From Minisyncoccota bacterium (GTDB lineage: Bacteria > Patescibacteriota > Minisyncoccia > Phycocordibacterales > UBA2100): DNA of 64,000 nucleotides. Numbering within the stretch: the first letter of the stretch is position 1; each line of letters begins with the position of its first letter. The position numbers were made by a program, and so were the translations under genes. The notes below the pieces were generated by a model, which worked only from the letters and a program-made list of their open reading frames with translations, was not told the DNA's origin and did not search any database. The stretch lies in assembly GCA_036517335.1 (NCBI GenBank), contig DATDWX010000033.1:9-64008 (forward strand). Reading direction: 5' to 3'. This document shows positions 5,486 through 63,800 of this stretch, piece after piece.

Positions 5486-7525
5486 ATGGCAGACAAAAAA
5501 AAGAAGAAGGCGGGTTCATACAACGCCGCGGACATCACCGTCCTCGAGGGATTGGAGGCGGTACGGAGGAGGCCGGGGATGTACATCGGCACGACCGACA
5601 CGTCGGGCTTGCATCATCTTGTCTGGGAAGTATTCGACAATTCGCGCGACGAGGCGATGGGTGGTTTTGCAAACGACATCGAAGTGGCGCTCCTTCCCGA
5701 CGGCTCGGTGCGCGTCGCCGACAATGGTCGCGGCATTCCAGTAGACGTCCATTCGAAAACAAAAGTCTCCGCGCTCGAAACGGTAATGACAAAATTGCAC
5801 GCCGGTGGCAAATTCGGTGGTGAAGGCTACAAGGTATCCGGCGGCTTGCACGGCGTGGGTGTCTCGGTCGTCAATGCGCTTTCGGATGCGGTGCGTGCGG
5901 AAGTGCATCGTGATGGCGGCGCATACGTGCAGGAATATAAAAATGGTGGCACGCCCGTGAGTAAGATCAAAAGAATGGGCTCGTCGGATCTGCACGGCAC
6001 CATCATCCGCTTTCGCCCCGATTCTTCGGTCTTTCCGGAACGCACATTCAATTGGGAGACGATCGTGGCACATATGCGCCAGCAAGCGTACCTCGTGCGC
6101 GGTTTGAGGATCTCTATCCTCGATCTGCGGCAGGTGCCCAAAGTCGACGTAGAGGACGCGTTCTATGTTCGTGAGCTGGGCATCGAAGCTCCCTCGGTGA
6201 GCTTTTATTTCGAGGGTGGTCTCCGCAGTCTCGTGGCGTTCCAGAATCGTCATCAGGAGCCCATCCACAAAACTATTTTTTACGTGGAGAAGGAAGAAGA
6301 CAACGTGCAGGTGGAGATAGCACTGCAGTATGTAGACGACATCAACGCGCGTCTTTCCGCTTTTGCAAATAATATCTACACTGCCGAAGGCGGTATGCAT
6401 GTGACCGGTTTCAAGGGCGCTCTCACCCGTTCGCTGAACGCACAAATAAAGAACGGTGGTGGCAAGGAGAGCGAGAGTTTTACCGGCGACGACTGCCTGG
6501 AGGGGATGACGGCGGTCATTTCGGTAAAGCTGCGTGAGATCCAATTTGAGGGACAAACGAAAGCCAAGCTCGGCTCGGTAGAGGCGCGCGCCGCGACGGA
6601 GGCGGTGTTTGGGGAAGCATTCAGCGCTTTTCTCGAAGAGCATCCTGACGAAGCCCGGGCAATCATCGCGAAAGTAAGCTTGGCCATGAAGGCGCGCAAG
6701 GCAGCCAAGGCCGCTAAGGATTCGATCCTGCGCAAAGGCGCCCTAGACGGCATGACACTGCCGGGCAAACTTGCCGACTGCCAAACGAAATCAGCAGAGG
6801 AATCCGAGCTGTTTATCGTCGAGGGGGATTCCGCCGGTGGCACTGCCAAAGCAGGTCGCGATCGCCGTACACAGGCGATATTGCCGCTGCGCGGAAAGAT
6901 CCTCAACATCGAGCGGGCGCGACTCGACAAAATGCTCGCCTCCGAGCAGATACGAAATCTTGTGGTCGCTCTCGGGACAGCGATAGGGGATATTTTTGAC
7001 ATTTCCAAATTGCGGTATCACAAGATCATTATCGCCACCGATGCCGACGTGGACGGCGCGCACATCCGCACGCTGCTCCTTACGCTTTTATTCCGACACT
7101 TCCGTCCGGTCATTGACGGCGGCTTTCTCTACATTGCGCAGCCGCCGCTCTACAAGATCAGAAAGGGGAAGGAAGTCGCGTATGCATACAGCGAGGCCGA
7201 AAAGGTTGGCATTGCGGGGAAAGATACCCCGATTGAAGAAGAAACATCGGGGCAAGGGGAGCCAGAGATTCAAGAGGCGACGCCTCTTGAATCTGGGAAA
7301 CGAACTCCAAAAATTTCGGTACAACGCTACAAAGGTCTGGGTGAGATGAATGCCGAGGAATTGTGGGAGACAACGATGGATCCGGCCAAACGCGTGCTTA
7401 TGCAAGTCACCATCCTCGATGCCCAAGAGGCCGACCAGGTCTTCGATATGCTCATGGGCACCGACGTCCCAGCCCGCAAGTCATTCATCCAGTCTCACGC
7501 GCGCGAAGCGACGCTGGATATTTAG
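5486..7525 (+). CDS. gyrB: DNA gyrase subunit B
   Basis: MADKKKK..YNAADITVLEGLEAVRRRPGMYIG, the GHKL ATPase, a TOPRIM (EGDSAGG) and QRYKGLGEM. Confidence 0.95.
   Translation: MADKKKKKAGSYNAADITVLEGLEAVRRRPGMYIGTTDTSGLHHLVWEVFDNSRDEAMGGFANDIEVALLPDGSVRVADNGRGIPVDVHSKTKVSALETVMTKLHAGGKFGGEGYKVSGGLHGVGVSVVNALSDAVRAEVHRDGGAYVQEYKNGGTPVSKIKRMGSSDLHGTIIRFRPDSSVFPERTFNWETIVAHMRQQAYLVRGLRISILDLRQVPKVDVEDAFYVRELGIEAPSVSFYFEGGLRSLVAFQNRHQEPIHKTIFYVEKEEDNVQVEIALQYVDDINARLSAFANNIYTAEGGMHVTGFKGALTRSLNAQIKNGGGKESESFTGDDCLEGMTAVISVKLREIQFEGQTKAKLGSVEARAATEAVFGEAFSAFLEEHPDEARAIIAKVSLAMKARKAAKAAKDSILRKGALDGMTLPGKLADCQTKSAEESELFIVEGDSAGGTAKAGRDRRTQAILPLRGKILNIERARLDKMLASEQIRNLVVALGTAIGDIFDISKLRYHKIIIATDADVDGAHIRTLLLTLLFRHFRPVIDGGFLYIAQPPLYKIRKGKEVAYAYSEAEKVGIAGKDTPIEEETSGQGEPEIQEATPLESGKRTPKISVQRYKGLGEMNAEELWETTMDPAKRVLMQVTILDAQEADQVFDMLMGTDVPARKSFIQSHAREATLDI
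7267..7293. repeat. 27-bp perfect palindrome GATTCAAGAGGCGACGCCTCTTGAATC lying in frame in gyrB (encodes IQEATPLES)
   Basis: Exact palindrome. It sits in the variable loop before QRYKGLGEM, which is about 25 aa longer than in the B. subtilis GyrB. Confidence 0.8.
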
Positions 7526-8592
7526 TACATCACGATAGCGGCTTGGTTGTTGGTCTTGATGGATTCGACTACCTGGCCGATCGGATCCACGATAACGGTG
7601 AAAGTGCCGCCACGGATCGCTTGCGAGAAGCGCAGGGTGTTGACGATATGTTCTCCAGGCGCGAGGGGAATTTGTTCTACGGACGTGTAGGTAGAGGGTG
7701 CCGGGATGGGGAGAAGCGCCTGGAAATACCAAGTGTTCGTCTTCGTGCCGCCGATATTCGCGATGTCAAACTCCACCCCGACGATGTCGTAAGGAGATGT
7801 GGGCGCGCGGTTGATGAGGGCGCCCGAAGAGGGGTCTATCACCCCGATCGCGATGATAACTACCCGCAGGTCTGCCGGCCCGCTCGCAGCATGCGCGACC
7901 AGGTTGGCGGCAGGACGTTTGGCCTTGTATGAATAGGTGGGTGCTGATTTTTTTACCACTGGCTTTGCGGGTGTTTGGGTAGCTGGCTTCTGCACGGGCA
8001 GCATGACCGCAGGCTGCGCCTGTGCCTTCGGCGCGATGACGATCGTTGCGCTGCCTTCCGCGCGCGTACCGGTCGCGCTTGGGGTGAAGAAGATTGAGAT
8101 GGGGACGGAAACAGAGTTCATGCCACTCAAAACGGGCACGAGCACCGCAGCGGTGGACGAGGCAACGTTGATCGAAGCGCCGCAGGGGACGCGGCTCACG
8201 GCCCCACCTCGTCCTTGTGTGGTGAATTCAAAACCCTTCTCGCACTTGTAGAGGAACGAGTAGGAGCCAGCCTGCGCAGCCGATCCAGCACTCGTCGGCG
8301 TGATTTTCCATGAAATGGTTATTGGCTCACTTGAAGTCGCGTTTTTCGGAGCGGTAATCTCCACTTTTGGCGCAGACCGCAGCCACGACCAAACGGAAAA
8401 ATTGGAAAGGGAAGCGATGTGCACCACGCCCCACATGATGATGAATGTCAGTATGATAAAGCCGGCAATCGCGAGTGCGTTGGACACGAAGCTCATGCTC
8501 GCGCTCTCCTGGGGGCTTGGGAGGAGCTTTTGTGGGGGTTTTGGTGCTTCAGCCATGGCGATATTTTTACAGAATAATGATCGGTGTGTCAA
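7522..8592 (-). CDS. Hypothetical N-terminally anchored extracellular protein (beta-rich)
   Basis: TM helix near the N-terminus, Thr/Ser/Pro-rich linker, beta-rich C-terminus. Confidence 0.45.
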   Translation of the reverse strand: MTHRSLFCKNIAMAEAPKPPQKLLPSPQESASMSFVSNALAIAGFIILTFIIMWGVVHIASLSNFSVWSWLRSAPKVEITAPKNATSSEPITISWKITPTSAGSAAQAGSYSFLYKCEKGFEFTTQGRGGAVSRVPCGASINVASSTAAVLVPVLSGMNSVSVPISIFFTPSATGTRAEGSATIVIAPKAQAQPAVMLPVQKPATQTPAKPVVKKSAPTYSYKAKRPAANLVAHAASGPADLRVVIIAIGVIDPSSGALINRAPTSPYDIVGVEFDIANIGGTKTNTWYFQALLPIPAPSTYTSVEQIPLAPGEHIVNTLRFSQAIRGGTFTVIVDPIGQVVESIKTNNQAAIVMY

Positions 8593-8616: not shown

Positions 8617-8646
8617 TTGACAAGTACCCTTATATCATGGTAATAT
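8617..8646 (+). promoter_or_regulatory. Sigma70-type promoter (TTGACA-18-TAATAT) upstream of the sortase gene
   Basis: Hexamers read directly. The ATG is 13 nt downstream of the -10 box. Confidence 0.45.
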
Positions 8647-8658
8647 CCCACTGTCAAT

Positions 8659-9342
8659 ATGACTAGACCTTCCTTACAGACTCGTCCCAAAGCACCCGCT
8701 TCTGTCTTTCTCGCCGCCACGGTGCTGATATTCTTCTTGTCGCTTTCGGCCGCTGATTCAGTGGGTTTTGTGCCGAGCTACATCGATGGCTCTTCGCCCG
8801 CTGGCGAATCGTTTGCCGCCAACGAAATTTCACTCGCTGACCTTCCACAGCTGGGAGAAGCTGATACTGCGCCAGTCAACGCGCCTGCACGCGTGGCTCT
8901 TACGGCGCTCCCCGTGCGTATCAACATCTCCTCTGTCGGCATTGACTTGCCCGTGCAAAATCCCAAAACGACCGAGGTCGGCGCACTTGATGCGCTTCTC
9001 AAGAAAGGTCCCGCGCGCTACGCCGATTCGGCGCGACTTGGCGAGAATGGCAATGTAGTCCTCTTCGCACATTCTTCACACTTGCCGATCGTCCGCAATA
9101 AAATGTACCAAGCGTTCAACAACATCCCCGACGCACAAGCGGGAGACATTGTGATCCTCACGGGCTCTGACGGCAGAGAATACATCTACAGCGTGGACTC
9201 GGTGGTCAAAGCGAGCACCAATGACGGTACGACCATCCCACTCACGGCCGCGGGCGCCAAGCTCACCTTGGTAACCTGCGACACCCTTACCGGCAAATCT
9301 GCTCGCTATATTCTGACCGCAAGCTTCGTCGGGACCGACTAA
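8659..9342 (+). CDS. Sortase family transpeptidase
   Basis: N-terminal TM anchor, catalytic His (LFAHSSH), TLVTC cysteine motif and downstream Arg. Confidence 0.8.
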   Translation: MTRPSLQTRPKAPASVFLAATVLIFFLSLSAADSVGFVPSYIDGSSPAGESFAANEISLADLPQLGEADTAPVNAPARVALTALPVRINISSVGIDLPVQNPKTTEVGALDALLKKGPARYADSARLGENGNVVLFAHSSHLPIVRNKMYQAFNNIPDAQAGDIVILTGSDGREYIYSVDSVVKASTNDGTTIPLTAAGAKLTLVTCDTLTGKSARYILTASFVGTD

Positions 9343-10746: not shown

Positions 10747-10821
10747 TACAAAACTGTATCATGCACTTAACAATGGAACCAACGAGTATTGTGGGCGAGG
10801 GGTGAAAGGTGAGATTTGAGC

Positions 10822-10849
10822 TTGACAAGGCACAATAAAGTGATATAAT
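10822..10849 (+). promoter_or_regulatory. Consensus sigma70 promoter TTGACA-16-TATAAT
   Basis: Exact hexamers about 75 nt upstream of the small-peptide ATG. A GGAGAAGAAGACG RBS is present. Confidence 0.55.
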
Positions 10850-10925
10850 CCCAACTAGTCTGGCGGGAGACCGTCCTGGCCAGTCGAAACCGGCTCTGCG
10901 GAGTCATAACACGGAGAAGAAGACG

Positions 10926-11180
10926 ATGAAGACGACGATGACGGCCGCCCTGGCGCTTGTCGCGTTGTGCGGTTTGGCCTCCTCGGCGGAGGCACGCTGG
11001 GTGTGCCAGCAGTGGCATCATCGGACCTGCGTAAGGGCAGTGTGGGTGCAACCGCCCCCGCAGGCGCAAACCGTCTACGGGCCGACGACGAGGTCCGCAC
11101 CCACGAGCACGTACCAGGCGTGCTGGGTCAACGGGGTCCGACGTACGGACATCCCCGAGAGTCAGTGCCGCGCGCACTAA
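10926..11180 (+). CDS. Small secreted cysteine- and tryptophan-containing peptide (84-aa precursor, about 61-aa mature, 4 Cys)
   Basis: Signal peptide MKTTMTAALALVALCGLASSAEA. High-GC codon usage. Strong promoter and RBS. Confidence 0.5.
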   Translation: MKTTMTAALALVALCGLASSAEARWVCQQWHHRTCVRAVWVQPPPQAQTVYGPTTRSAPTSTYQACWVNGVRRTDIPESQCRAH

Positions 11181-11392
11181 CGTTCCCAAGGTGTGGCCAG
11201 CTTCGCAGTGATCTGCAGGCTGGCCCACCAATCCATTCTTTTGTTCTTTTTCGTGTTCTTTTTCGCGAAAGTCTGTTTGCGAGCAACCATCTTATTCGGT
11301 TCTCAAACAGACCTTCACGAGATGAAGGTTTCGCAACGGGACCAACCGCTGCGGTTGGTCTTTGATATCTTACCGCAAATGGGAGAAATGCG

Positions 11393-11920
11393 ATGCATGT
11401 ATCCGATATTTTTTCGCGGCATGAACGCCGCGAAGCGATGGTCACTTTTTTCGTGGAGGCCGGTGCCAGCGACGCGCAGTCCTACGGGGCGATCGTAGCC
11501 TTGATTGTTCCAATCCTTGGTCTACTCGATCCATCCCTCGAGATACGGCTCTTCGCGGCAGCCATTTTCTTCGCCATCGGGCACGTCTACTGGTGGATCG
11601 AGGCCGGATGGATCACGGCCGAAATCCAACGGCACGGCGTGCTCGACACCAACGACGTGAGTTATCAGCGTCGCACGATGTACTGGCTGTATTACGGCGT
11701 CATCTTCGCTGTCGTCGTATGGCTCCTGTCGATGGTCGGATGGTTTGCCGGAGGTTGGCCCCATTTGCACTACGGCCTTGTGGAATGGGTGATACTAATC
11801 CATACCATTATGGTTGGGAGGGGGGCAATCGGTACCATAAATCACCTCTTCGACCAGTACCTGCAGGCCACGGCGGCTCAAAAGAGGTACGAGACGGAGG
11901 AGAGGCCACCTCGGCAGTGA
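11393..11920 (+). CDS. Hypothetical 4-TM membrane protein
   Basis: ORF with four hydrophobic helices in the high-GC islet. An alternative start is at 11438 (MVTFF). Confidence 0.45.
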   Translation: MHVSDIFSRHERREAMVTFFVEAGASDAQSYGAIVALIVPILGLLDPSLEIRLFAAAIFFAIGHVYWWIEAGWITAEIQRHGVLDTNDVSYQRRTMYWLYYGVIFAVVVWLLSMVGWFAGGWPHLHYGLVEWVILIHTIMVGRGAIGTINHLFDQYLQATAAQKRYETEERPPRQ

Positions 11921-11943
11921 GATACTTGCCGGTGCAACAAAAA

Positions 11944-11972
11944 GGCGGGGACCCAACCCCGCCATTTTTCTA
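11944..11972 (+). terminator. Rho-independent terminator (ggcgggg acccaa ccccgcc atttttct)
   Basis: GC stem plus T-run directly after the 11393-11920 gene. Confidence 0.55.
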
Positions 11973-11973
11973 C

Positions 11974-12001
11974 TTGACAATTCGTATTCGTTTGTTATAA
12001 T
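11974..12001 (+). promoter_or_regulatory. Consensus sigma70 promoter TTGACA-16-TATAAT
   Basis: Exact hexamers upstream of the 12076 gene. Confidence 0.55.
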
Positions 12002-12075
12002 AGAAAGTGGACTAAGAAGCCCTCATACGACCGGGGCTTTAAAATTCGGTCGCGTTCATTGGGAGATAGATAAGC

Positions 12076-12726
12076 ATGTCCGACACCTCTGGTACGTCGC
12101 GTACCCCGCGTCGCGTTCGTCGCCACCATGTGGCGTTGGTCATCCTCGTTCTGCTTGTGGCAACCGTCGCAGGTGGTTGGGGTCTAGGCGTTTTTTCGAT
12201 CAACAAAGACAAGGCCGCCGAGATTGGCCAACGTGCGGGCATCGGTGGCGGCCCATCGGCTCCCCTCGACCCGGCTTTCAAGGTCAAGGCCGACGCGGCC
12301 GAGCAGGAAAACGCTCGCCTCAAGGCCGAGGTGGTGGAGCGGAAACGCGTCGCCAAGATCGAGGCCGAAAACGCCGAGCTCAGGGCGAAGCTGTCTGGCC
12401 AAAAGTCGCCAGCAGCGCCTGATTCGACCGCTTCGGCACCGCCAGCGGCACCAGTGCCTCCGCAGTCGACGCAGCCGCCCGCGGGAAACCCTCGCGAGCA
12501 AATGGCTGCCCGCGCCTACGAGAAGCTTGGCCCTGCTCCGGAAGGTTCGCGCCTTTACGAGCACCAGGTCAACCCTGCGCAGCCCGCCCTTAAGGCTGCA
12601 CAGAAGGTGGCCGCGACGCCGCCCGCAGGCTACACGGGCTGTGAGATTCACAGCCAGGTGGACGATCCGGTCACGCACGAGCTTCACACCCGCTGGAAGA
12701 ACTGCGTTCCCGCAAAAGGCAAATAG
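12076..12726 (+). CDS. Membrane-anchored coiled-coil, Pro/Ala-rich protein
   Basis: N-terminal TM, coiled-coil segment (ENARLKAEVVERKRVAKIEAENAELRAKL), PA-rich linker. High-GC. Confidence 0.5.
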   Translation: MSDTSGTSRTPRRVRRHHVALVILVLLVATVAGGWGLGVFSINKDKAAEIGQRAGIGGGPSAPLDPAFKVKADAAEQENARLKAEVVERKRVAKIEAENAELRAKLSGQKSPAAPDSTASAPPAAPVPPQSTQPPAGNPREQMAARAYEKLGPAPEGSRLYEHQVNPAQPALKAAQKVAATPPAGYTGCEIHSQVDDPVTHELHTRWKNCVPAKGK

Positions 12727-12740
12727 GACTTCGGTCCGGT

Positions 12741-12780
12741 GCGGGGGGTGGCTGAGCTGCCCCCCGCATTTCTCTTTTTC
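12741..12780 (+). terminator. Rho-independent terminator (gcgggggg..ccccccgc + atttctctttttc)
   Basis: 8-bp GC stem and a T-rich tail. Confidence 0.6.
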
Positions 12781-12885
12781 ACTTCAAGAAATCTTTCGTG
12801 GACGGCTGATTGTGTGCTACAAATGCACAGCCAGGCTTTCATGAAATCTGCGCACCATGCGTGGATATAGCGCAAGGAGGAAGCC

Positions 12886-13269
12886 ATGCTGATCTTTATA
12901 AGAATGGCGACGGTTTTTTCCTTCGCCACAATCATTGCCTTTACGGCTCACGCGCAGAGCTCACCGCCGCGGTGCGTTGACACTGGAAACAGTATTGACA
13001 TCCAGACACCTGACGGTAAGCCATTCCATGTTCAGATTCCGATTGGAAAGGAGCTCAAACAAGAACTCTTCTTCTCGTGGGCGTATTCGATCGATGGCAC
13101 GGGCTGCATCGAAGAACGCCCGCGCAAGGTCTGCGATAGGGAGCTCAAAAAACGCGGTCTGCCTCCGCATCGGTGGAAAAGAACCGAAACGTGCGAGCAT
13201 TTCGTCATTCCAAGCAACGCGGGACACGACCACCGGAGGGAGAACCAGCGTAGGGGCAGGAGACAATAA
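12886..13269 (+). CDS. Hypothetical secreted protein (4 Cys)
   Basis: Signal peptide (MATVFSFATIIAFTAHA). A GGAGGAAGCC RBS precedes the start. Confidence 0.45.
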   Translation: MLIFIRMATVFSFATIIAFTAHAQSSPPRCVDTGNSIDIQTPDGKPFHVQIPIGKELKQELFFSWAYSIDGTGCIEERPRKVCDRELKKRGLPPHRWKRTETCEHFVIPSNAGHDHRRENQRRGRRQ

Positions 13270-13333: not shown

Positions 13334-13361
13334 TTGACAAGTCAAAAAAAAGCATTATAAT
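13334..13361 (+). promoter_or_regulatory. Consensus sigma70 promoter TTGACA-16-TATAAT
   Basis: Exact hexamers. The first in-frame ATG overlaps the -10 box, so the true start is more likely the ATG at 13402. Confidence 0.5.
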
Positions 13362-13401: not shown

Positions 13402-14856
13402 ATGAAGTCAATCATGCAACGGGAAAATTCGATCGGGCTTATGTTCAGCATTGTCATGCTGTTTGCTTTGTTTGCCGTCACAGGAGTGTTTCCGATGCAG
13501 GCGCATGCCCAATTTGTTGATACGACCACTCCCTATGGTGATGGAGGCGGGTTTTTGGGTGATACGAACGGCGGATACGGAATTTTCGGCTCGCAAGGAG
13601 GTTTTGTTGATACAACTACGCCGTATGGCGGAGGTGGATACGTTGATACAACTACACCATACGATTACTCCGGTTACGTAGACACCACTACTCCTTACAA
13701 TTATGGAGGTTATGTCGATACAACTACTCCTTACGGCAGCATTACGCCGATCGGCGACACATACACTCCTGAATACAGCTACAGGCCCGGCGACACGTAC
13801 ACGCCCGAGTACAGTTACACCCCGGGCAGTACATACACGCCCGAGTACAGCTATTCGACGTATTCCCCGTACTCTTCAATTCCGTCGTACGCTTCGCAGT
13901 ACATTCCTACCTACGCGGCACAGTACATGCCGAGCTACACGATACCAACATTCACTTCGACACAGGTGCAGACACAGCGCGCGCCGACGTTTACCACGGC
14001 CGCTCCGCAGACACAGACGCAGAGTCAGTCGCAGGCGAGCACGAATACGAACGTGAATCCGAATACAAACACCAACGTCAACACCGCTTCGACAGGTGCG
14101 ATCACCATCAACAACACGGTCAACGCAGCGCCGGTCGTGCAGGCACAGCCGCAGCGCCCGATCCAGTACACGTTCCCGAGCCCTGCCTGCACCATCTACG
14201 CTTCCAACGCCTATAGCTACAACACCTACAATTACAATCAACCGATCACTCTTACGTGGTCTTCCAGCAACGCCACCAGCGCATATATCTCGCCGAACGT
14301 CGGCACCGTCAACACCTCTGGCTCGACCACGGTGTACCCGAGCGGCTACACGACCTACACGCTCACGGTCAGCGGCGCGGGCGGCACCGCGACCTGTCAG
14401 ACGACTGCCAACTATGCCTATGCTGCGCCGACCTACGTTGCTCCGACCGTCGCAACTCCCGTAGCTCCATACGTCTCGCTCACGCAGATCCCGTACACAG
14501 GCCTCGATTACGGCCCGGTGGGCAACGCGATCTACTGGCTCTCGATGCTCTCGTTTGCAGTTGCGGCCGGATATCTGATGGTCTATTATCGTGGTGGCGC
14601 CTTCGCCTTCGCTTCGAGCATGCTCGGTTCCGCCAAGGGGGGGACTCGCAATGACTCGTACGATTTCTCGGATGATGGTGGTGCTTCATCCGCTGTCGAA
14701 ACAGAAGCGTCGGCAGAAGTTGCCCCTGAAATGATAAAAAGTCCGATCACTGTAGGTATGCTTCCGACCATCGAGAACCGCCGCATCACGACCGACTCGA
14801 TGATCATTGAAAGTTCGATTGGCAGTGCACCTCGCATCGTGATTGCGCGGGGTTAA
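13402..14856 (+). CDS. Secreted low-complexity surface protein with tandem (F/Y)VDTTTPY and PEYSY repeats, Thr/Tyr/Asn-rich, with an internal TM near the C-terminus
   Basis: Signal peptide, 6x YVDTTTPY repeats, 3x TYTPEYSY repeats, an IPYTG motif followed by a hydrophobic segment. Confidence 0.6.
   Translation: MKSIMQRENSIGLMFSIVMLFALFAVTGVFPMQAHAQFVDTTTPYGDGGGFLGDTNGGYGIFGSQGGFVDTTTPYGGGGYVDTTTPYDYSGYVDTTTPYNYGGYVDTTTPYGSITPIGDTYTPEYSYRPGDTYTPEYSYTPGSTYTPEYSYSTYSPYSSIPSYASQYIPTYAAQYMPSYTIPTFTSTQVQTQRAPTFTTAAPQTQTQSQSQASTNTNVNPNTNTNVNTASTGAITINNTVNAAPVVQAQPQRPIQYTFPSPACTIYASNAYSYNTYNYNQPITLTWSSSNATSAYISPNVGTVNTSGSTTVYPSGYTTYTLTVSGAGGTATCQTTANYAYAAPTYVAPTVATPVAPYVSLTQIPYTGLDYGPVGNAIYWLSMLSFAVAAGYLMVYYRGGAFAFASSMLGSAKGGTRNDSYDFSDDGGASSAVETEASAEVAPEMIKSPITVGMLPTIENRRITTDSMIIESSIGSAPRIVIARG
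13495..13740. repeat. Tandem roughly 27-bp coding repeats (YVDTTTPYG units)
   Basis: Six degenerate direct repeats read in the DNA and in the translation. Confidence 0.7.
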
Positions 14857-14921
14857 TAAAACAATTGACGGGTGCGAGCTCTCCTGCTTCGCCAAGGCTT
14901 CGCAGGACAAGAAAGTGAACG

Positions 14922-14950
14922 AAAAACCGCCCCAAAGGCGGTTTTTCGTT
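14922..14950 (+). terminator. Rho-independent terminator (aaaaaccgcc ccaaa ggcggttttt)
   Basis: Perfect stem with a flanking T-run after the repeat-protein gene. Confidence 0.7.
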
Positions 14951-15012: not shown

Positions 15013-15387
15013 ATGGCAAAAAGGATCCTCGTGGGTGAAGACGACTCGCTGCTTTCTTCGATGATCGTGAGGCGTTTGGATGCCGAAGGGTACGACACCG
15101 AGGCCACGTACGACGGCGAACAAACGATCAAGAAGATACGAGACTGGAAGCCCGATCTCTTGCTCCTCGACATTCTCATGCCTGGTAAAAGTGGCTACGA
15201 TGTCTTGGAAGTGATGCGCGCCGAGGGCATACACGCGAGCATGCATGTCATCATTCTCTCAAACTTGAGTGCCAAAGAGGATATCGCTCGCGCGCAGAAA
15301 TATGGCGTGACCGACTTTCTCGTCAAGGCTCGAACTACGCTCGCAGAAGTGGCCGAGAAGGTAAAGAGCGTACTTTCCGCCTCCTAA
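15013..15387 (+). CDS. Stand-alone response-regulator receiver domain (CheY-like)
   Basis: ILVGEDD...DLLLLDILMPGKSGYDVL...VIILS...DFLVKA with conserved Asp and Lys positions. Confidence 0.8.
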   Translation: MAKRILVGEDDSLLSSMIVRRLDAEGYDTEATYDGEQTIKKIRDWKPDLLLLDILMPGKSGYDVLEVMRAEGIHASMHVIILSNLSAKEDIARAQKYGVTDFLVKARTTLAEVAEKVKSVLSAS

Positions 15388-15392
15388 ATTCC

Positions 15393-16508
15393 GTGGAACA
15401 GCCGATGAAGAGCAGGCTCCTCTTTTTTCCACTCTGGTTGAAACTTGTTGTCGTGATCGTGGTGGCCGCGTTGCCCCTCGCTGCGCTTACTTTGCTACTC
15501 TCGGATGTGTGGAGTTTCCTCGGTGTTTCTGGTCTCTTCGTACGTACCGACCTTACCCATATCGGGCAGTACGAAGTACCGCTGGTATATGTGGCGGGCG
15601 GTAGCGCCTTATTACTCGCCCTCTTACTCGGCCTCATCGCATCAGAAGCGCTCTTCCTCACCTCCGCCCGTCGTACTTTGCGGTGGCTTCTCGAATTGCG
15701 TCGGGGAGAATTTAAGGTCGTGCCACCGCTTGGAAGGACCGGAGCAGATGAGATCGGAGAAATAGGCCGGCAAGTGGCCTTCGCGGCGCTCACCTTCTCG
15801 CGTCAAAAAGAGCAAAGCGATGCATCCATCGAGCAGCGCTCACTCTTCCTCATGACCGCCGCACATCAGCTCCGCACACCGCTCACGGGTCTTCTGTGGA
15901 CCATCGACACGCTTCAGAATGCTGCCACATCGGAAGCGGAGCGGGCGAGATCACTGCTTGCGGTGGGCGAGAGTGTGCGGCGCATGCGGCTCGTGATCGA
16001 ACACATTCTCGCGAGCGCCAGTATCGAGGAAGGAAAGTACGGCTACGTGTTTGAACAGGCCGATATGGTCCCCGTGATCGAGGAGCTCGTATCAGAACTG
16101 AAGCCACTTTCGGAGCATCATCAGATAGACCTTGCATTCTTGCACGAGGGAAGCGTACCTGCGCACATAGATAAAGAGCGTATTTCGCTCGCGCTCTTCG
16201 ACCTGATGTCCAATGCTATTCAGTACACGCCTGCGCGCGGACACGTACGCGTGTCGCTCAATGCGGCGGGTGGGCGCGTGGAGGTAGCCATCGAAGATAC
16301 TGGTATCGGCATTTCGGAGGATGAACGCGCACTCCTTTTTAATAAATTTTATCGCGGGGAACGCGCGCGACACATGCATCCCGACGGCTCGGGCCTCGGA
16401 CTCTACCTGGCGCGCACGATCATCCAGAAACACGGATCGGACATCGCTATACAATCTGCCGAAGGAAAGGGGACCCGCATCTCTTTTTTCCTGAAGTCGA
16501 AGCGTTGA
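15393..16508 (+). CDS. Sensor histidine kinase (membrane-bound)
   Basis: H-box HQLRTPLTGL, N/G boxes (DTGIGI, GSGLGLYLA), N-terminal TM helices. Confidence 0.8.
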   Translation: MEQPMKSRLLFFPLWLKLVVVIVVAALPLAALTLLLSDVWSFLGVSGLFVRTDLTHIGQYEVPLVYVAGGSALLLALLLGLIASEALFLTSARRTLRWLLELRRGEFKVVPPLGRTGADEIGEIGRQVAFAALTFSRQKEQSDASIEQRSLFLMTAAHQLRTPLTGLLWTIDTLQNAATSEAERARSLLAVGESVRRMRLVIEHILASASIEEGKYGYVFEQADMVPVIEELVSELKPLSEHHQIDLAFLHEGSVPAHIDKERISLALFDLMSNAIQYTPARGHVRVSLNAAGGRVEVAIEDTGIGISEDERALLFNKFYRGERARHMHPDGSGLGLYLARTIIQKHGSDIAIQSAEGKGTRISFFLKSKR

Positions 16509-36642: not shown

Positions 36643-36673
36643 AATATTAGTGGTTTACGAAACCACTAATATT
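36643..36673. repeat. REP-like 31-bp palindrome AATATTAGTGGTTTACGAAACCACTAATATT overlapping the RAYT1 stop codon
   Basis: 14-bp perfect arms. Copy 1 of 3 of this family. Confidence 0.75.
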
Positions 36674-37328
36674 CCAGGCGGTACTCCTTGAGAGAGCTTG
36701 CTTGGTTGGATCGCAAGAATGACGAGATTTCTTTTTTGTAGTCCTTAAAGACGTCGGAGAAGAGTTCGGTTGTCAGAATTGATGGAAAATTGTGTGTCCC
36801 CGTGTAGTCGAGGTAGCTGCTCCACTTATATTTTTCAAGAGTTTGCAATGCAGCTGTAGCACTCTGCAAACCATGTTGCCGCCATTCCTTGCCGCCGCGA
36901 GAAAAGTCGAGTGGATTACTATGAATGTAATTGAGAATGTGCAAAAAATGTGCGTCGGTATGGATGTGAACCTTCTTGCTGCGTCCCTGAAAAAGCGTGC
37001 CTTGCCGTTTATATCGCTCGTTAAAGTAATTGGCATATCCCACGTTCAGGCGACGAATAAACTTTGTAAGGCCGCCGTCTATCCGTTCAGATATGAGAAG
37101 GTGATAGTGATTTCCCATAAGACACCATGCATGCAGATCAACGATCCGCTCCTTTGCCATATAGTGGTTTCGTAAACCACTAATATCAGACGCGCGATGC
37201 CAAACATTTTTTGCGTCTTCAACGTCATTGAATTCCCACATGTCGTGTACGAACCGGGCCCTGTCCTTGTCATCAAGGAATAATGATCGCTTATCAACGC
37301 CGCGATTCAAAACGTGGTACAGCTCCAT
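36666..37328 (-). CDS. REP-associated tyrosine transposase (RAYT) / IS200-like HUH-Y1 transposase, copy 1
   Basis: HUH motif (AWCLMGNHYHLLI) and a Y1 motif (LNYIHSNPL; compare YIYINPV in E. coli RayT). 220 aa, flanked by REP-like palindromes. Confidence 0.8.
   Translation of the reverse strand: MELYHVLNRGVDKRSLFLDDKDRARFVHDMWEFNDVEDAKNVWHRASDISGLRNHYMAKERIVDLHAWCLMGNHYHLLISERIDGGLTKFIRRLNVGYANYFNERYKRQGTLFQGRSKKVHIHTDAHFLHILNYIHSNPLDFSRGGKEWRQHGLQSATAALQTLEKYKWSSYLDYTGTHNFPSILTTELFSDVFKDYKKEISSFLRSNQASSLKEYRLEY
37159..37186. repeat. REP-like palindrome (ATATAGTGGTTTCGTAAACCACTAATAT) inside the RAYT1 coding sequence (encodes DISGLRNHY)
   Basis: Same arms as the flanking copies with a complementary centre. 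Confidence 0.7.
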
Positions 37329-39441: not shown

Positions 39442-40767
39442 ATGGCAGCAAAAAAATCAAAGAAAACAGGCAAGCGCAAACAGGTGAGCCGCCCAAGGCG
39501 CGCGAAGCTTTCGAGGGTCAAGCCGCGCGCGCGGCGTCGCTCCAGCTCCGCACAAACGGCGATGCGCCGAAGGGCTGCCCGCGTGCGGGCTGCGCGTGCT
39601 TCACGTGTACGCGCTCCTTTACCCGCCAAAAAATCCACGGCGACCAAGCCCCTGCCGGGTGAGAGGATCTTCGGCGGAGAGGCAGGACAGCGCAAATACC
39701 AGACTAAAGTCGAGGGGCTCATCCGCCTCGGACGCGAACGCGGCTACGTGACCTATGATGAAATTCTTCGCGAATTTCCCACGATCGAGGAAAACGTTCT
39801 TTTGCTCGAAGAAATGTACGAGCGCTTCGGATCGGCGGGCATCGATGTCTTAGAAGGAGGGGGCATGCTCGGAGATACGACGGCCGACGAAATATTGGAG
39901 AAGAAAAAATTGCAGCACCGCCGCGCGGACGCTGGCTTCGATTCAGTGCAGATGTATCTGCGCGAGATCGGCCAGTACCCGCTCTTGAACGGCGATCAGG
40001 AAAAAACGCTCGCGAAGCGCATTGTGGAAGGTGATCAAGAAGCGCGCGGCATTCTCGCCCGCTCCAACCTTCGTCTGGTCGTATCGATCGCCAAGAAATA
40101 CGTGAATCGCTCGCCCGACCTCACACTCCTCGACCTCATTCAGGAGGGCAATCTCGGCCTTTTCAAGGCGGTGGACAAATTCGATTGGACCAAGGGCTAC
40201 AAATTCTCCACCTATGCGACTTGGTGGATCCGCCAAGCCATCACCCGCGCGCTGGCCGATCAGAGCCGCACCATCCGCATCCCCGTCCACATGGTCGAGA
40301 CCATCGCCAAGTACAAGCAAAAGGTGCGCGAGCTTTCCCAGCACCTGGGGCGCGACCCGCTGCCGGAGGAGATCGCGGCGGAAATGGGCATCGAGATCGA
40401 GAAGATCTACACCATCCAGAAGATCAACCAAGACACCGTGTCTCTCGAGAGCCCGGTGGGTGAAGACGACGACGAGCGCTCCACCTTGGGCAGCTTCATT
40501 GCCGACGACACCATCGCGAGCCCCGATATGGACGCTTCGCGCCGCATCCTCGGCGAGCAAATGATGGACATTCTCGAAGAGCTCTCACCGAAGGAGCGCA
40601 AGATACTCGAAATGCGCAATGGTCTCACCGACGACGGCGTCTGCTCCACCCTCGAAGAAGTAGGCCGAGAATTCGGCGTGACGCGCGAAAGAATTAGGCA
40701 AATTGAGGCAAAGGCGCTAGAGAGAATAAGGTTCCACGAACGCGCAAAACAGCTCCGGAGCTACTAA
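39442..40767 (+). CDS. rpoD: RNA polymerase sigma factor RpoD with a basic N-terminal extension
   Basis: Regions 1.2-4 ([44 protein letters not shown]). Confidence 0.9.
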
Positions 40768-40864
40768 TTTTAGAGTGTACGTACCGTTGGGAGTTAAGGT
40801 GAGATAGTGTATATTGCTGGGTATGGCTTGGTTTGGATACAAAAAGGATACAGAAACAGAAACA

Positions 40865-41149
40865 ATGCAGATGGCGGTAGACCTGCCAGTATCTTTTATT
40901 GAAGAGGGTAATTCTGTTATTGCCTACACGCCAGCCCTCGATCTGTCGACCTGCGGAAGCACTCATGAAGAAGCCAAACAAATGTTTGACGAAATAGTTA
41001 AAATTTTCTTTAAAGACTTAGTTGAGAACAATACAACTGATGAGGTGCTGTCTTCCTTGGGGTGGACCAAAAAGACCCAGACGGCAAACTGGATGCCGCC
41101 TAAAATTTCACAAGAATCTATCGGGGTCCAAGTTCCGATCCCTGCCTGA
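40865..41149 (+). CDS. hicB: HicB-like antitoxin (UPF0150 fold)
   Basis: VIAYTPALDLSTCGSTHEEAKQMFDEIVKIFF matches the HicB N-terminal domain pattern. Immediately followed by a HicA-like gene. Confidence 0.55.
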   Translation: MQMAVDLPVSFIEEGNSVIAYTPALDLSTCGSTHEEAKQMFDEIVKIFFKDLVENNTTDEVLSSLGWTKKTQTANWMPPKISQESIGVQVPIPA

Positions 41150-41157
41150 CTTCCCGT

Positions 41158-41391
41158 ATGAAGGGGGTCGGTAAGATAAGTTGGCAGAGGTTTGAAAAAT
41201 TTCTCCTCGCGATTGGTTGCGAACTTAAAAGCCAAGAAGCCAGTCATCGCAAATACAAAAAGGCCGGAATTCTAAGGCCGATCATTGTTCCATGCTACAA
41301 AGAAATTCCAGATTTTGTCATTCTTAATAATTTGAGAACGCTCGGGATCTCAAGGGAGTACTTTGAGAAAACGATTAAAAGTTTCCGCTAG
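41158..41391 (+). CDS. hicA: HicA-like mRNA interferase toxin (YcfA family)
   Basis: FEKFLLAIGCELKSQEASHRKYKK...IVPCYKEIPDFVILNNLRTLGISREYF matches the HicA family pattern. Confidence 0.6.
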   Translation: MKGVGKISWQRFEKFLLAIGCELKSQEASHRKYKKAGILRPIIVPCYKEIPDFVILNNLRTLGISREYFEKTIKSFR

Positions 41392-41460
41392 ACAAGAGAG
41401 AATTCTCGCACTCATCCGCCAGACCTGCCCCGTTAGAGGCGAATGCTCTCTAACGGAGTC

Positions 41461-41523
41461 GAAGCCAAAGCCCTCGAACGCATCCGCTTTCACGAACGTG
41501 CCAAGCAACTGCGGAGCTATTAA
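41461..41523 (+). repeat. Synonymously recoded duplicate of the last 20 codons plus stop of rpoD ([20 protein letters not shown])
   Basis: Identical peptide to 40705-40767, but almost every codon differs at the third position or in Arg codon choice. Preceded by the hairpin cgttagag..ctctaacg. Confidence 0.75.
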
Positions 41524-41528
41524 AAATG

Positions 41529-42548
41529 TTAGTGCACCCCTATATTAAAAAGAATATAAGTTACAGCCCCTGCGAGAACTACGTTGATAAAGGTGTTCAC
41601 ATAGGCAGTCAGATTTTGCCAGAAGTTTGATCGCTTGCTCACTGCAAAATCCAAAAGGCTTTTAACTGACGCAATCGGATAGTTTCTGAAATTGCGGCGC
41701 GCATTGTCGTTGTATTCCCGCAGATACTCTCGCGGAGGGTTATAAGTATCCTCAAACCGATCATTGATAAGGTGCGGCAACAACACAGAATCTGATTCAA
41801 ACTCAATCAACTGCTCCATAACTTCAGCAATGTGATCGTTCAGGATGAACCACTTAGCACTTTGTCCAGCGACGAGCAGATTTTTTTCCTCAATATTTGA
41901 CCACTTTTTAACTCGTGACGCCTCGATTTCGCGCATCATATAAAAGAGATTCAGCTCAGACCTGAGCTCTTCAAATATCTGATCCTTGATGTCGAGAAAT
42001 TTGAGCTTATCTACGAATACCTGAACGCGGTCATATCCAGATTGCTTCTCTATCTCCACACCAAAGAAATTGGTTGGGATTACGAAGAAGTCGGCGTGAA
42101 AAGGAGAGGGACCAATTACTTCCAATTCGAAATTACTTCGAAGGTATTTCCGAATGTATCCACGCACCTTTACAATTCCCGTGCTGGGATCTGCGGAGGT
42201 GGTGAGGGGAAAAACGAGCGTAACTGGCGTGTCGTATTCCGATTGGGTCCATAAACTGTACCGGGTATCCGATCCACGAAAATTATGATCAGAGCTCAGA
42301 TCAATATGAAATGAGAAATTCAAAAACCTGAGAGGATGTGTTCCTTCGAGAAGAGCTGGCGGTGCATCAAGATCAGCCTCTATGTGAAGGTTTGATAGAC
42401 CTGGTATATTCCTCAACGCTTCAGAAAGGTTGAGTATTTGTTCCTCCAAAGTTATTGGCACTGCAGATGTTATTTGAAAAAAGAACGAACCTATACCAAA
42501 TGAAAAATTAGTACCTACTGGCAAATTTTCTTTATTCACAAAGCGCAT
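41529..42548 (-). CDS. Hypothetical protein with a C-terminal TM; markedly AT-rich gene
   Basis: 339-aa ORF. Local GC is well below the window average. Convergent with hicA. Confidence 0.5.
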   Translation of the reverse strand: MRFVNKENLPVGTNFSFGIGSFFFQITSAVPITLEEQILNLSEALRNIPGLSNLHIEADLDAPPALLEGTHPLRFLNFSFHIDLSSDHNFRGSDTRYSLWTQSEYDTPVTLVFPLTTSADPSTGIVKVRGYIRKYLRSNFELEVIGPSPFHADFFVIPTNFFGVEIEKQSGYDRVQVFVDKLKFLDIKDQIFEELRSELNLFYMMREIEASRVKKWSNIEEKNLLVAGQSAKWFILNDHIAEVMEQLIEFESDSVLLPHLINDRFEDTYNPPREYLREYNDNARRNFRNYPIASVKSLLDFAVSKRSNFWQNLTAYVNTFINVVLAGAVTYILFNIGVH

Positions 42549-42615
42549 GCTACTCCTTCATGATTGGCTTGTCCAAAACGAGAGACCCGTACCGGCGACG
42601 ATGTGGCGGTACGGG

Positions 42616-60840: not shown

Positions 60841-63800
60841 ATGGATACACTAAAACATATAAAGCGACTCCAGATGTACACTCTTCTTTTTCTTCTTGCT
60901 GTTGCGTGTATGTTTGCACTTCTTCGTCCAACTACAGCATCCGCTGCGTGCGGGACATTGGCGAGCGGCGCCTCGCTCACACCAGGGCAATCCATAGTTT
61001 CCTGCAACGGTGCATACACCCTTGCTTTCCAAACCGACGGCAACGTCGTGCTCTATGTAGGAAAAGTATTCACCCCAGAGTACGCGCTCTGGAGCACCAA
61101 GACAAATGGCGAAGCAGCAACCCTCTTTGCCATGGAAACCGACGGCAATCTTGTCCTTTACAAAACAGGATCGCAGACCAACGACAATGCGCTCTGGGCG
61201 TCCGGATCAACACCACCAACGTTGAAGTCTGGCGGTGGGACATTCGGTAAGCCTGGTTATCTTGCCGTGCAAGACGATGGCAATCTCGTTGTCTATGCGA
61301 CGTCTGACGCCTCTGTTCTGTGGGCATCAAACACAGTACCGCGAGTGCTGAAAGAAGCGTGTGAGGTCAATTTGCCGCTGGATGGATATACGTGTTCACA
61401 CATAGCCCCTCCTTCAGCCTCTTCTCTCACGATGGACGATCTGCAGGCGATCTTAGAGGAGCAGGGACCGAATACCCCCTACGTCGAACTCTATGGAGCT
61501 TCGGCTGATGGCATTGGAATGGACGGCCTCAAAATTGTTGAAACACCCATCGGAAGCACCTATCCGTATCTTGGAGTGTTCCACCAATTGGTGGGTAGTG
61601 CTTTTGACACCTATGCCGCATATTCGACCGATCTCAAGACGTGGCACCTCCTCGGAACAATCAGGGGCGGTACTTCCGGCCAACCAGATATCCGCATTTT
61701 ACCAGACAAGTCGGTCTTGGTGGCGTACGAAATGCCATCCTTCTTTACATCGCACATTACCGTCAAATATTACTCATCGGTCGATTCATTCATCACAAAT
61801 CCGTCGGGTGCGACCGCCACCATTGATCTGCCGATGGTACCGGGCAACCAAAACAACGGAACTCCCGTCTTTGGCACGATTATTTACAATGGCAATATCT
61901 ATGATTCCACGATACAGATCACGCATCACTGGAGGAATCAACGCAGTATGGATCAGGTCGCCATTGGATACCTGACCAATTTCAGCAGCTGGACATCTTC
62001 CTCCGATAATGCAGTCAACAACAAGCTTGCCGCGCTCGGGCGCCTTCAGGTAGGCGATCGTGACGTATTTCAGGTCGGCGACACGGTTTATGAGATAGTC
62101 GAGGCCAACGCCCATGAGCCTATAGGAAATTCGGGCTGGGATACCTGGCGTAACTACCTTATCAACAGAGGATCTTCAGGTTTGGAGGTCCTGGATACGC
62201 GCAAGCTCGTGCCGATAATCCCGGGAGGTGCCTACTCGCTCGGCAATCCCACCGCTTCATTTCTCCATCTGCCAGATGGTCGCCCAGCCCTCGCATTCAC
62301 ACACTACTTATTTTATCAAGGAGCAGCCAACACACCGGCCGGTCCGCACTTGTATGTGTACCCACTCAGCACTTCCTACATTGCCCCCACATCCACCACC
62401 CCAACCCCTCTCCCTCTCCGCACCGGCGCTCTCACCGTCACACTCACCGCCAACGGAGTCACTAACCCCACCGTCGCCGAAGGTGATTCACACACTCTGG
62501 AGTGGTACAGTGCCAATGCCTCATCTTGTACGCTCTCCTACTCGCTGCCAGGCGTAAGCACCATAGGAACTATCTCACTAATACCAAATGCAGCAGGGAG
62601 CGGGACATCGCAGGCCGGCGGTACGCGGACTATCACCTGCATCGGTACCTACGGCACGACTATCACAAAGACCATAACGATCACGGTAACCCCCCCCATT
62701 ACCGCAACTTCAAACTACCCCCGCGGCTACATCGAATCCTCAACCTACGCGACTATCACCGGCTGGGCGCAGGACCAAGACATCCCGGACTCACCGATCG
62801 ATGTCCACTTCTACATCGACAAGCCACCCACAGACACCGACTTCTCTGGCTACGCGGGAATGGTGAGTGCCAAAGACTACCGAGCCGATCTGTGTAACGA
62901 AATCGGCTCCTGCAACCACGCTTTCTTATTTACTGTTCCTGCAAAATTCAAAGACGGCCTAGCGCACACAGTCTATGCTTACGGTATGGATGAAGACGGT
63001 GTCGGCGCTCACAACCTGGCACTCATACCATACGCAAGCACATCCAACATATTCCAATACCTCGCTGCTACCACGACCACATCCACCGCCACCCTCACCG
63101 CAGGTAAGCAGTCCGTAGTCTCGGGCGAGACTGTCATCCTCGTATGGGAATCCACCAACACCTCATCGTGCACTGGAACCAACTTCTATACGGGAGGAAA
63201 GAGGTTCGGGTTAGCGGGCCCCTATCCGAAAGCTACTACCACCTACTCCATCACCTGCGCTGGGAACGACGACACCTCGCCTACAGCGAGCGTGACCGTG
63301 GGGGTCGGCGCCGCAACCACCAACATATTTTATCCCCGCGGCTACATCGAATCCTCAAACTACGCGACTATCACCGGCTGGGCACAAGACCGAGACATTC
63401 CCGACTCTCCGATCGACGTCCATATTTACATCGACAAGCCACCCACCGCCACCGACTTCTCTGGCTACGTGGGAATGGTGAGTGCCAAAGACTACCGGAG
63501 CGATCTGTGTACTAACGCCGGTTCCTGCAACCACGCTTTCACATTTACTACTCCCACAAAATACCAAGACGGTATTCTGCACACCGTCTACGCCTACGGC
63601 ATGGATGAAGACGGTGTCGGCGCGCACAACTCGGCACTCACCCCATATTCAAGCACCTCCAACACATTCAAATACCTCGCTGTTACCACCAGTGCCCCCA
63701 CCATCACCTCCATCTCACCCTCCTCCGGCTCCGGTAGCGTCCCCATCACCATTACGGGCACGGGCTTCAACGCCACCCAGAACCTCGTCTTCCTAGGAGG

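Follow-up and report, generated by a model that had tools for sequence, protein, structure and literature searches.

Operons of Sec-dependent class II bacteriocins (enterocin P-type) combine a structural gene for the peptide with a gene for a small membrane immunity protein, such Sec-dependent peptides being exceptions within class II. Other exported proteins carry a compact module at the end of a longer segment, as in TonB-like stalk-and-knob proteins with their Pro-rich spacers and in type IV pilins, which end in a disulfide loop (D-region). Genomes of the candidate phyla radiation (CPR), or Patescibacteria, are rich in orphan genes, and the host contact of these ultrasmall bacteria is largely unexplained. 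Here, we describe a cluster of orphan genes in a 64-kb stretch of contig DATDWX010000033.1 (the window, to which all positions refer), part of the chromosome of an uncultured groundwater bacterium of Candidatus Paceibacterota (CPR). Its core, at 10.75-12.8 kb, contains three open reading frames (ORFs), encoding a small secreted four-Cys protein (ORF84), a four-helix integral membrane protein (ORF175) and a membrane-anchored protein with a Pro/Ala-rich spacer (ORF216).

On balance, we regard the region as a native, vertically inherited envelope or surface gene cluster of this bacterium, extending over about 8.6-14.9 kb. As predicted from the translations, every product of the cluster carries a signal peptide or a membrane anchor. 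The exposed parts of these proteins appear to diverge much faster than ORF175 and the flanking genes, with promoters, 5' untranslated regions (UTRs) and terminators that stay nearly unchanged, and the genes are probably highly expressed, from what seem to be the strongest sigma-70-type promoters in the window. The cluster thus comprises new, uncharacterised orphan secreted and membrane proteins of a CPR bacterium, of ordinary kinds, with strong promoters and a candidate structured leader.

The likeness to Sec-dependent class II bacteriocin operons lies in a small cationic disulfide-type peptide that has a Sec signal and whose gene precedes a hairpin and a gene for a small multi-helix membrane protein, and in rapid divergence. 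Unlike those operons, the cluster is chromosomal, to all appearances vertically inherited, and set amid other surface proteins; unlike those bacteriocins, ORF84 has a Pro-rich spacer between two Cys-stapled hairpins, and one homologue, P0010, is membrane-anchored. With TonB-like proteins and the type IV pilin D-region, ORF84, P0010 and ORF216 share an anchor or signal, a Pro-rich spacer and a disulfide-closed C-terminal module, but they lack TonB_C, a class III signal and an N-methylation site, and gave no profile matches to these systems.

Conservation of the cluster

The NCBI entries identical to ORF175 and ORF216 are hypothetical proteins from a metagenome-assembled genome labelled 'Candidatus Paceibacterota bacterium'. 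The core region recurs at 100% identity, per contig overlap, in at least ten groundwater-type metagenome assemblies, one of them a Rifle-aquifer data set. Because the contigs L001, L002 and L005-L012, from this same population, are 100% identical to the core region over their overlap with it, they give no comparative information. The independent versions of the locus in the searched collections number three: that of the window and those of L003 and L004, two relatives so divergent that their orthologues are only 41-61% identical to those of the window.

Both relatives keep the gene order of the window: an ORF363 homologue on the minus strand, a small secreted four-Cys Pro-rich protein, an ORF175 homologue, a protein with a transmembrane (TM) segment plus coiled coil, a small secreted protein and a repeat-rich protein of about 500 aa. 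Gene by gene, identity to L004 is 59% for ORF363, 41% for ORF84, 49% for ORF175 and 52% for ORF498, with no significant similarity for ORF216 and ORF127. None of these six proteins had a match above noise in Pfam, NCBIfam or PADLOC.

The secreted peptide, its putative membrane partner and ORF216

ORF84 (10926-11180, + strand) encodes an 84-aa precursor with a Sec-type signal peptide (residues 1-23) and an AEA↓R cleavage site; it begins MKTTMTAALALVALCGLASSAEA↓RW. The mature protein of 61 aa is cationic (7 Arg/Lys, 2 Asp/Glu) and contains 4 Cys (27, 35, 66 and 81), 4 Trp and 6 Pro; its middle is Pro-rich, and its C-terminal loop reads Y-x-[AG]-C-[WR]-VNGV-x4-IP-x3-C. An earlier inspection of the letters and translations, here called the sequence-only reading, had noted this precursor, correctly as to signal peptide, mature length and the four Cys, although it counted five Trp; the ribosome-binding site that it called strong is, in our reading, a moderate GGAG Shine-Dalgarno sequence 9 nt before the ATG. 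The 5' UTR of about 70 nt (10857-10925, +) has a 5'-proximal hairpin that folds in all three loci, weakly supported at z scores of only -0.3 to -2.1.

In a word-indexed search of 5.8 billion proteins, ORF84 matched nothing but itself. Two relatives, P0006 (E = 4e-19) and P0010 (E = 3.7e-4), came from the full HMMER scan of 1.84 billion representatives; P0007-P0009, repeat proteins from the same scan, were discarded as compositional matches. P0006 is the L004 protein, which has in common with ORF84 the stretches AEA↓[RH]WVCQQWH.RTCVR.VWV and TVYGPTT...Y.[AG]C[WR]VNGV....IP...C, with a longer, Pro/Tyr/Gly-rich spacer between them. At the ORF84 position, L003 encodes a protein without significant similarity to ORF84, in which a signal peptide (AQA↓N) is followed by a Cys pair, a Pro-rich spacer and another Cys pair. 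An A-x-A cleavage site is present in all three precursors. ORF84 was also considered as a lipoprotein and rejected as such, VALC being no canonical lipobox and its Cys being missing from the signal peptides of L003 and L004.

P0010, which is also related to P0006 (E = 6e-9), is a protein of 115 aa with an N-terminal membrane anchor, a Pro/Thr-rich stalk and an ORF84-type C-terminal Cys loop (YDGCRVNGVLHPEIPESQCR, as in ORF84 and P0006). It is encoded at 2145-2492 of contig L014 (ENA ERZ25039495 contig_107542), within an integrative element of an organism of 55-65% GC that also carries a P4-type integrase, an HTH_17 excisionase-like protein, DUF932 and a Replic_Relax-like protein. The Cys loop is therefore a module found both on a CPR chromosome and on a mobile element from a different bacterium. 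A search of plasmids with P0010 and one of viral contigs with the ORF84 family profile found no relatives, and a sequence search of the PDB returned none for ORF84 or for ORF175. The AlphaFold (AF2) model of ORF84, of low confidence (predicted local distance difference test, pLDDT, 55.3), places each Cys pair across a beta-hairpin, and its best part is the C-terminal loop (pLDDT 68-76).

ORF175 (11393-11920, +) encodes an integral membrane protein without Cys. Three of its segments are clearly hydrophobic, and the AlphaFold model, also of low confidence (pLDDT 53.5), has four long helices; conserved polar residues within the helices are H64, E70, E77, R93, E131, H137, R143, N150 and D154. Homologues are P0003 (61% identity, L003) and P0004 (49%, L004), and in all three loci the gene lies 3' of that for a small secreted four-Cys protein. 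No match was found in Pfam, NCBIfam or PADLOC at E <= 0.1, hence none to EntA_Immun, CPBP/Abi or related families, and profile scans of GTDB genomes and of IMG/VR viral contigs found no relatives.

ORF216 (12076-12726, +) has an Arg-rich cytoplasmic N-terminus, a TM segment at residues 19-37, a coiled-coil-like segment, a Pro/Ala-rich spacer (the protein has 22 Pro and 36 Ala) and a C-terminal C-x20-C loop; the charged heptad-like stretch at about residues 70-106 was judged by eye, without a coiled-coil predictor. The ORF216 homologues are joined through L003 (window versus L003, E = 2.9e-4; L003 versus L004, E = 1.4e-11, in the N-terminal part), and their differences therefore suggest very fast divergence of the exposed parts rather than gene replacement. 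The design of anchor or signal, Pro-rich spacer and C-terminal Cys loop recurs in ORF84, P0010 and ORF216. What the sequence-only reading had said of these genes largely agrees with our results: it had described a four-TM protein after the peptide gene (we find four long helices, of which three are clearly hydrophobic) and then a Pro/Ala-rich coiled-coil protein anchored in the membrane, with a promoter and a terminator of its own, a description that suits ORF216 (the coiled coil by eye only). The architecture that it drew, a small Cys-containing peptide exported by Sec next to membrane proteins, with strong promoters and terminators, also appears to hold, and the peptide gene is linked to an ORF175-type gene in all three independent versions of the locus.

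Promoters, terminators and transcription units

Three perfect TTGACA-16-TATAAT promoters with a TGn extended -10 element were found: P1 (10822-10849, +), P2 (11974-12001, +) and P3 (13334-13361, +, just beyond the core), positioned to drive ORF84, ORF216 and ORF498, respectively. They are the only perfect matches in the 64 kb, where shuffled sequences lead to an expectation of 0. Matches at 11 or more of the 12 positions number four, all at 8.6-13.4 kb; the fourth (11/12; 8629-8657, -) faces a gene for a 356-aa membrane-anchored protein (7522-8592) with a weak CARDB match. The four best promoter matches in the window are thus grouped in a span of 5 kb, each facing a surface-type gene, and none stands ahead of rpoB or rpoC.

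At the orthologous sites, P1, P2 and P3 match at 11/12, 12/12 and 12/12 positions in L004, and P1 and P2 at 12/12 each in L003, in the part that its contig covers. In their boxes, spacing (16-18 nt being the range), position upstream of a gene and retention in orthologous loci, these elements look like sigma-70 consensus promoters. The claim of the sequence-only reading that each gene stands under a consensus promoter is borne out for ORF84 and ORF216 but not for ORF175, which lacks one in all three loci and is preceded instead by a hairpin and a leader.

Terminators follow ORF175 (11944-11963, +; 7 G-C pairs, then a T-run) and ORF216 (12738-12770, +; a 15-pair stem, then a T-run), as had been proposed for both genes. 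The stem of the first is kept in L004 and L003 through compensatory changes. P2 together with the ORF216 5' UTR is about 84% identical between the window and L004, though the proteins encoded downstream cannot be aligned. This UTR (12002-12075, versus 2137-2211 in L004) includes a CGACCG...CGGTCG hairpin; the UTR of L003 differs, and the fold z score is not significant. Together, these signals delimit three putative transcription units: ORF84, hairpin, leader, ORF175 and terminator; ORF216, terminator and ORF127; and ORF498.

The hairpin after ORF84 (11190-11229, +) has a stem of about 17 bp and a 4-nt loop (-30.8 kcal/mol, z = -4.9); L004 carries an almost identical hairpin and L003 an equivalent one. 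A gap of about 8 nt between the stem and the U-rich tract sets it apart from canonical terminators, and we read it as a candidate leaky terminator or 3' stabiliser.

The leader of ORF175

Between this hairpin and ORF175 lies a non-coding leader of about 130 nt (11262-11392, +), with hairpin arms at 11263-11282 and 11301-11320, a further helix region at about 11325-11370 and a GGGAG ribosome-binding site. Its conservation exceeds that of the coding DNA that flanks it, with insertions and deletions that disrupt all reading frames, and it contains an inverted repeat with 20-nt arms (fold z = -4.2). In the RNAalifold consensus of 28 pairs, paired cells make up 93% of the total, against 35-46% in controls with slid partners, and three pairs are compensatory (for example, G-C to U-A in the main stem). 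The leader may therefore be structured, which these data suggest without proving. A candidate internal ORF175 promoter, TTGCGA...TTCTCA, was rejected for its poor -10 box and for a spacing that differs between loci (17 nt versus 9 nt).

In its setting, the leader resembles attenuators, RNase III processing hairpins and riboswitch-like leaders: it is a spacer of about 130 nt between co-oriented cistrons, with a 20-bp hairpin and compensatory changes, and it adjoins a ribosome-binding site. Unlike known leader RNAs, it is represented by only three sequence variants and has no credible counterpart in Rfam (Rfam 15), where no model reached its gathering threshold and, at E <= 10, there were only chance-level matches (E = 2-5) to eukaryotic long non-coding RNA models. 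A 21-mer from its core is unique in the window; a scan of GTDB genomes for the core found nothing, and one of JGI (Joint Genome Institute) metagenomes gave a single chance match, inside an unrelated 596-aa ORF (L013).

A more far-reaching proposal, which we put forward as a speculation with rather little chance of being right, is that the leader is a structured regulatory RNA, undescribed so far and specific to a Paceibacterota lineage, which works by attenuation, as a site of processing or in response to a ligand or protein. Such an RNA would set the ratio of an extremely abundant secreted disulfide peptide to its membrane partner, and the peptide and its fast-evolving stalk-and-Cys-loop neighbours would be host contact or effector molecules of an episymbiont. 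If it is a real regulatory RNA, the leader would be one of few CPR-specific cis-regulatory RNAs.

A model for the cluster and the points against it

In the model that follows from a native surface cluster, Sec would export ORF84 and signal peptidase I would cleave it behind the conserved A-x-A, releasing an abundant cationic 61-aa peptide of two disulfide-stapled hairpins with a Pro-rich spacer between them. The hairpin after the gene would stop or protect most transcripts from P1, and the fraction that reads through would bear the structured leader, possibly a site of processing or attenuation, through which ORF175 would be kept at a low level. A high ratio of peptide to membrane protein would thus come about by attenuation, processing or differential stability. 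ORF175 may be the membrane partner of the peptide, as a receptor, an anchor, a chaperone or a means of self-protection. The fast evolution of the exposed parts suggests contact with something external, be it a host cell, a phage or a competitor; host contact, phage interaction or competition is what we infer from this evolutionary pattern.

Several points weigh against this model. The functional link between ORF84 and ORF175 is drawn only from their conserved adjacency, and the loop has just one other carrier, P0010 in L014, next to which no ORF175-like gene lies. Promoter strength is read only from the match to the consensus. With only three sequences, the covariation score of the leader was reached by 37 of 500 shuffles, and ORF175 could have a weak non-consensus promoter within the spacer. 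The L004 peptide precursor is longer at the N-terminus by about 80 residues, which include two hydrophobic segments, and its processing may therefore differ. Both structure models (ORF175 and ORF84) are of low confidence (pLDDT 53-55), and family-library and PDB sequence searches found a characterised homologue for none of the cluster proteins.

Alternative functions of the peptide

A first alternative is in essence the function proposed by the sequence-only reading, with the horizontal transfer set aside: ORF84 would be a Sec-dependent toxin or bacteriocin-like peptide, produced in excess from P1, and ORF175 a membrane protein that confers immunity, supplied through read-through. We hold this to be unlikely, though far from negligible. 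It would account for a small, cationic, Trp-rich peptide with four Cys and a Sec signal peptide, for the order, common to the three loci, of peptide gene, hairpin and gene for a small multi-helix membrane protein, and for the fast evolution of the peptide sequence. Yet no bacteriocin or immunity family came up in the family-library scans, nor any CPBP/Abi, ABC-exporter or defence family, and ORF84 has neither sequence nor profile similarity to any known bacteriocin or immunity family. Compared with class IIa (pediocin-like) peptides, ORF84 has no YGNGV box with an N-terminal disulfide (only ...CWVNGV... near the C-terminus) and no Pfam Bacteriocin_II or NCBIfam match. Nor does it show the double-glycine leader and the ABC exporter or accessory gene of other class II peptides, its leader being of the Sec type with A-x-A and the cluster containing no transporter gene. 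Sequence conservation is higher in the putative immunity protein than in the peptide. The membrane-anchored P0010 bears the conserved Cys loop as well, behind a Pro-rich stalk, and the neighbours have a similar design of anchor, spacer and Cys loop; on both grounds, display at the surface is favoured over release.

It is very improbable, in our view, that ORF84 is a secreted signal sensed by the two-component system downstream, a response regulator (15013-15387) and a histidine kinase (15393-16508, +). The kinase lies about 4 kb downstream in the same orientation and has two N-terminal TM segments around a short external loop of about 30 residues, but it is of the HisKA type with two TM segments, unlike the polytopic peptide-sensing AgrC/ComD-like kinases. 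The regulator is receiver-only, without a DNA-binding domain, no processing or export gene is present, and an autoinduction loop would not predict constitutive consensus promoters. A bidirectional terminator (14918-14950) lies between the cluster and the two-component system.

Base composition and origin of the region

The sequence-only reading took the region for a high-GC islet, at about 66% against about 57% in the flanks, and saw in this a sign of horizontal acquisition, possibly from a high-GC, actinobacterial-like donor. The GC content of 10750-12800 is in fact 58.4%, against a window mean of 54.4%. This 2-kb region still ranks in the top 1.5% of windows, but high values are confined to ORF84 (67.5%) and ORF216 (64.8%), with 56.8% in ORF175 and 46-50% in the spacers. 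In the tetranucleotide comparison that the same reading had named as a check, run here against the window, the region is ordinary: its correlation with the window (r) is 0.744, 2-kb windows averaging 0.789 +/- 0.117, a deviation equalled or exceeded by 27% of windows. ORF84, ORF175 and ORF216 fit the core genes in synonymous codon usage as well as other native genes do. GC at third codon positions (GC3) is 0.70 in ORF175 and 0.71 in ORF216, against 0.71 in rpoB and 0.69 in rpoC; the surplus GC of ORF216 is in codon positions 1 and 2 and therefore comes from its Ala/Pro/Gly/Arg content, that is, from amino-acid composition. In ORF84, GC at codon positions 1, 2 and 3 is 0.58, 0.61 and 0.84 (GC3 0.835).

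No tRNA gene was found in the 64-kb window, no flanking repeats at the borders of the region and no integrase, transposase or other mobility gene adjoining it, the neighbours being a sortase, orphan proteins and the two-component system. The patchy presence expected of a genomic island is not seen, since cluster, order, promoters and GC pattern are kept in both available relatives, L003 and L004; in these, GC is 0.64 and 0.60 for the peptide gene, 0.62 and 0.64 for the ORF216 homologue and 0.49 for the ORF363 homologue. Because the same order and per-gene GC pattern recur there, high GC would be an old, composition-driven property of these genes in the lineage, a by-product of a Pro/Ala/Arg/Gly-rich composition plus GC3-rich codons shared with rpoB and rpoC.

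Recent acquisition of a high-GC islet from an actinobacterial-like donor is thus largely refuted, and we give it very little credence. In its favour are the rank of ORF84 and ORF216 among the highest-GC stretches of the window, the high GC3 of ORF84 and the presence of the Cys-loop module in the integrase-bearing element of L014; against it stand the native tetranucleotides and codon usage, the agreement of GC3 in ORF175 and ORF216 with rpoB and rpoC, the low-GC spacers, the lack of mobility marks and the synteny in relatives whose orthologues are only 41-61% identical. The most deviant composition in the window is that of 40500-42600 and 61000-62000 (GC 44-48%, tetranucleotide r 0.30-0.45). 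The ORFs of these two stretches, for example one of 339 aa at 41529-42548 (-), had no Pfam matches, and they are better candidates for foreign DNA than the core region.

Coding status of ORF84

ORF84 is, as the pattern of substitutions indicates, the true coding frame. Of the 57 substitutions that separate it from the L004 homologue, 30 are at codon position 3, with 15 synonymous codon changes, and the same substitutions would fall on position 1 in an antisense frame of 154 aa. This pattern, together with an oriented promoter, Shine-Dalgarno sequence, signal peptide and downstream hairpin, argues for a real gene. We attach next to no weight to the notion that ORF84 is no gene and that the real feature is the antisense ORF, or nothing: the JGI call of that ORF and the empty interval between ORF363 and ORF175 in several assemblies would agree with it, but the codon-position substitutions and GC3 periodicity fit the plus frame and not the antisense one, the promoter, Shine-Dalgarno sequence, signal peptide and terminator are all oriented on the plus strand and conserved, and there is a protein homologue at E = 4e-19.

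The antisense 154-aa ORF (10767-11231, -) overlaps ORF84 and is called as a gene in a JGI assembly (L006, 8414-8878); as the substitutions fit the ORF84 frame, it is best seen as a by-product of high GC. ORF84 itself is absent from most public annotations of this population, several of the assemblies calling nothing between ORF363 and ORF175.

Surface-protein neighbours and chromosomal setting

ORF127 (12886-13269, +), whose ribosome-binding site is AAGGAGG, encodes a small secreted four-Cys protein with a signal peptide (AHA↓Q); its counterpart in L004 (108 aa) has the same design and cannot be aligned. ORF498 (13402-14856, +; annotated start 13360) encodes a repeat-rich surface protein with a signal peptide and Thr/Pro/Tyr repeats. 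It contains YVDTTTPY and GDTYTPEYSY tandem repeats, an Asn/Thr/Gln-rich region and IPYTG followed by a hydrophobic segment and a tail of about 85 residues. The -10 box of P3 (TATAAT, 13356-13361) overlaps the annotated ATG at 13360, and the true start is probably the ATG at 13402 (MKSIMQRENS..., with a signal peptide ending AHA↓Q), which gives a 5' UTR of about 35 nt.

Sortases are reported to be common in CPR, where a hypervariable surface protein rich in Pro and Thr is also on record (PMC6851277). As in such sortase (LPXTG) surface loci, a sortase gene (8659-9342) is present, 1.5 kb upstream of ORF84 and 4 kb upstream of ORF498, and the cluster contains an IPYTG repeat protein and Pro/Thr-rich, fast-evolving proteins. 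Unlike in those loci, ORF84, ORF175 and ORF216 carry no LPXTG-type sorting motif, and the tail of ORF498 is long rather than short and basic. Because of its IPYTG, the hydrophobic segment and the sortase gene 4 kb upstream, ORF498 may be an atypical sortase substrate. With sortase, IPYTG-bearing repeat protein and weakly CARDB-like protein, the neighbourhood fits a Gram-positive-type surface-protein locus. A literature search on small Cys-rich secreted proteins of CPR and on CPR promoters found nothing specific.

The family-library scan showed the window to be a segment of bacterial chromosome with compact housekeeping genes, including rpoB (1066 aa), rpoC (1231 aa), dnaE, gyrB, pheT, SMC (731 aa) and class I tRNA synthetases, in addition to the sortase. 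Directly 3' of rpoC, in a stretch of 46% GC, a 220-aa ORF (36666-37328, -) contains an IS200-like Y1 transposase domain (E = 5e-8).

Implications

The region is a caution in the reading of composition, in that Pro/Ala/Arg-rich secreted proteins and GC3-rich codons mimic a foreign high-GC islet. It also offers ready-made strong promoters and terminators for a CPR lineage. By sequence alone, the cluster singles out a few orphan proteins, secreted or membrane-bound, whose genes probably rank with the most strongly transcribed ones in the organism. With exposed parts that change quickly and expression signals that do not, these proteins are reasonable first candidates for envelope or host-contact functions in these bacteria.

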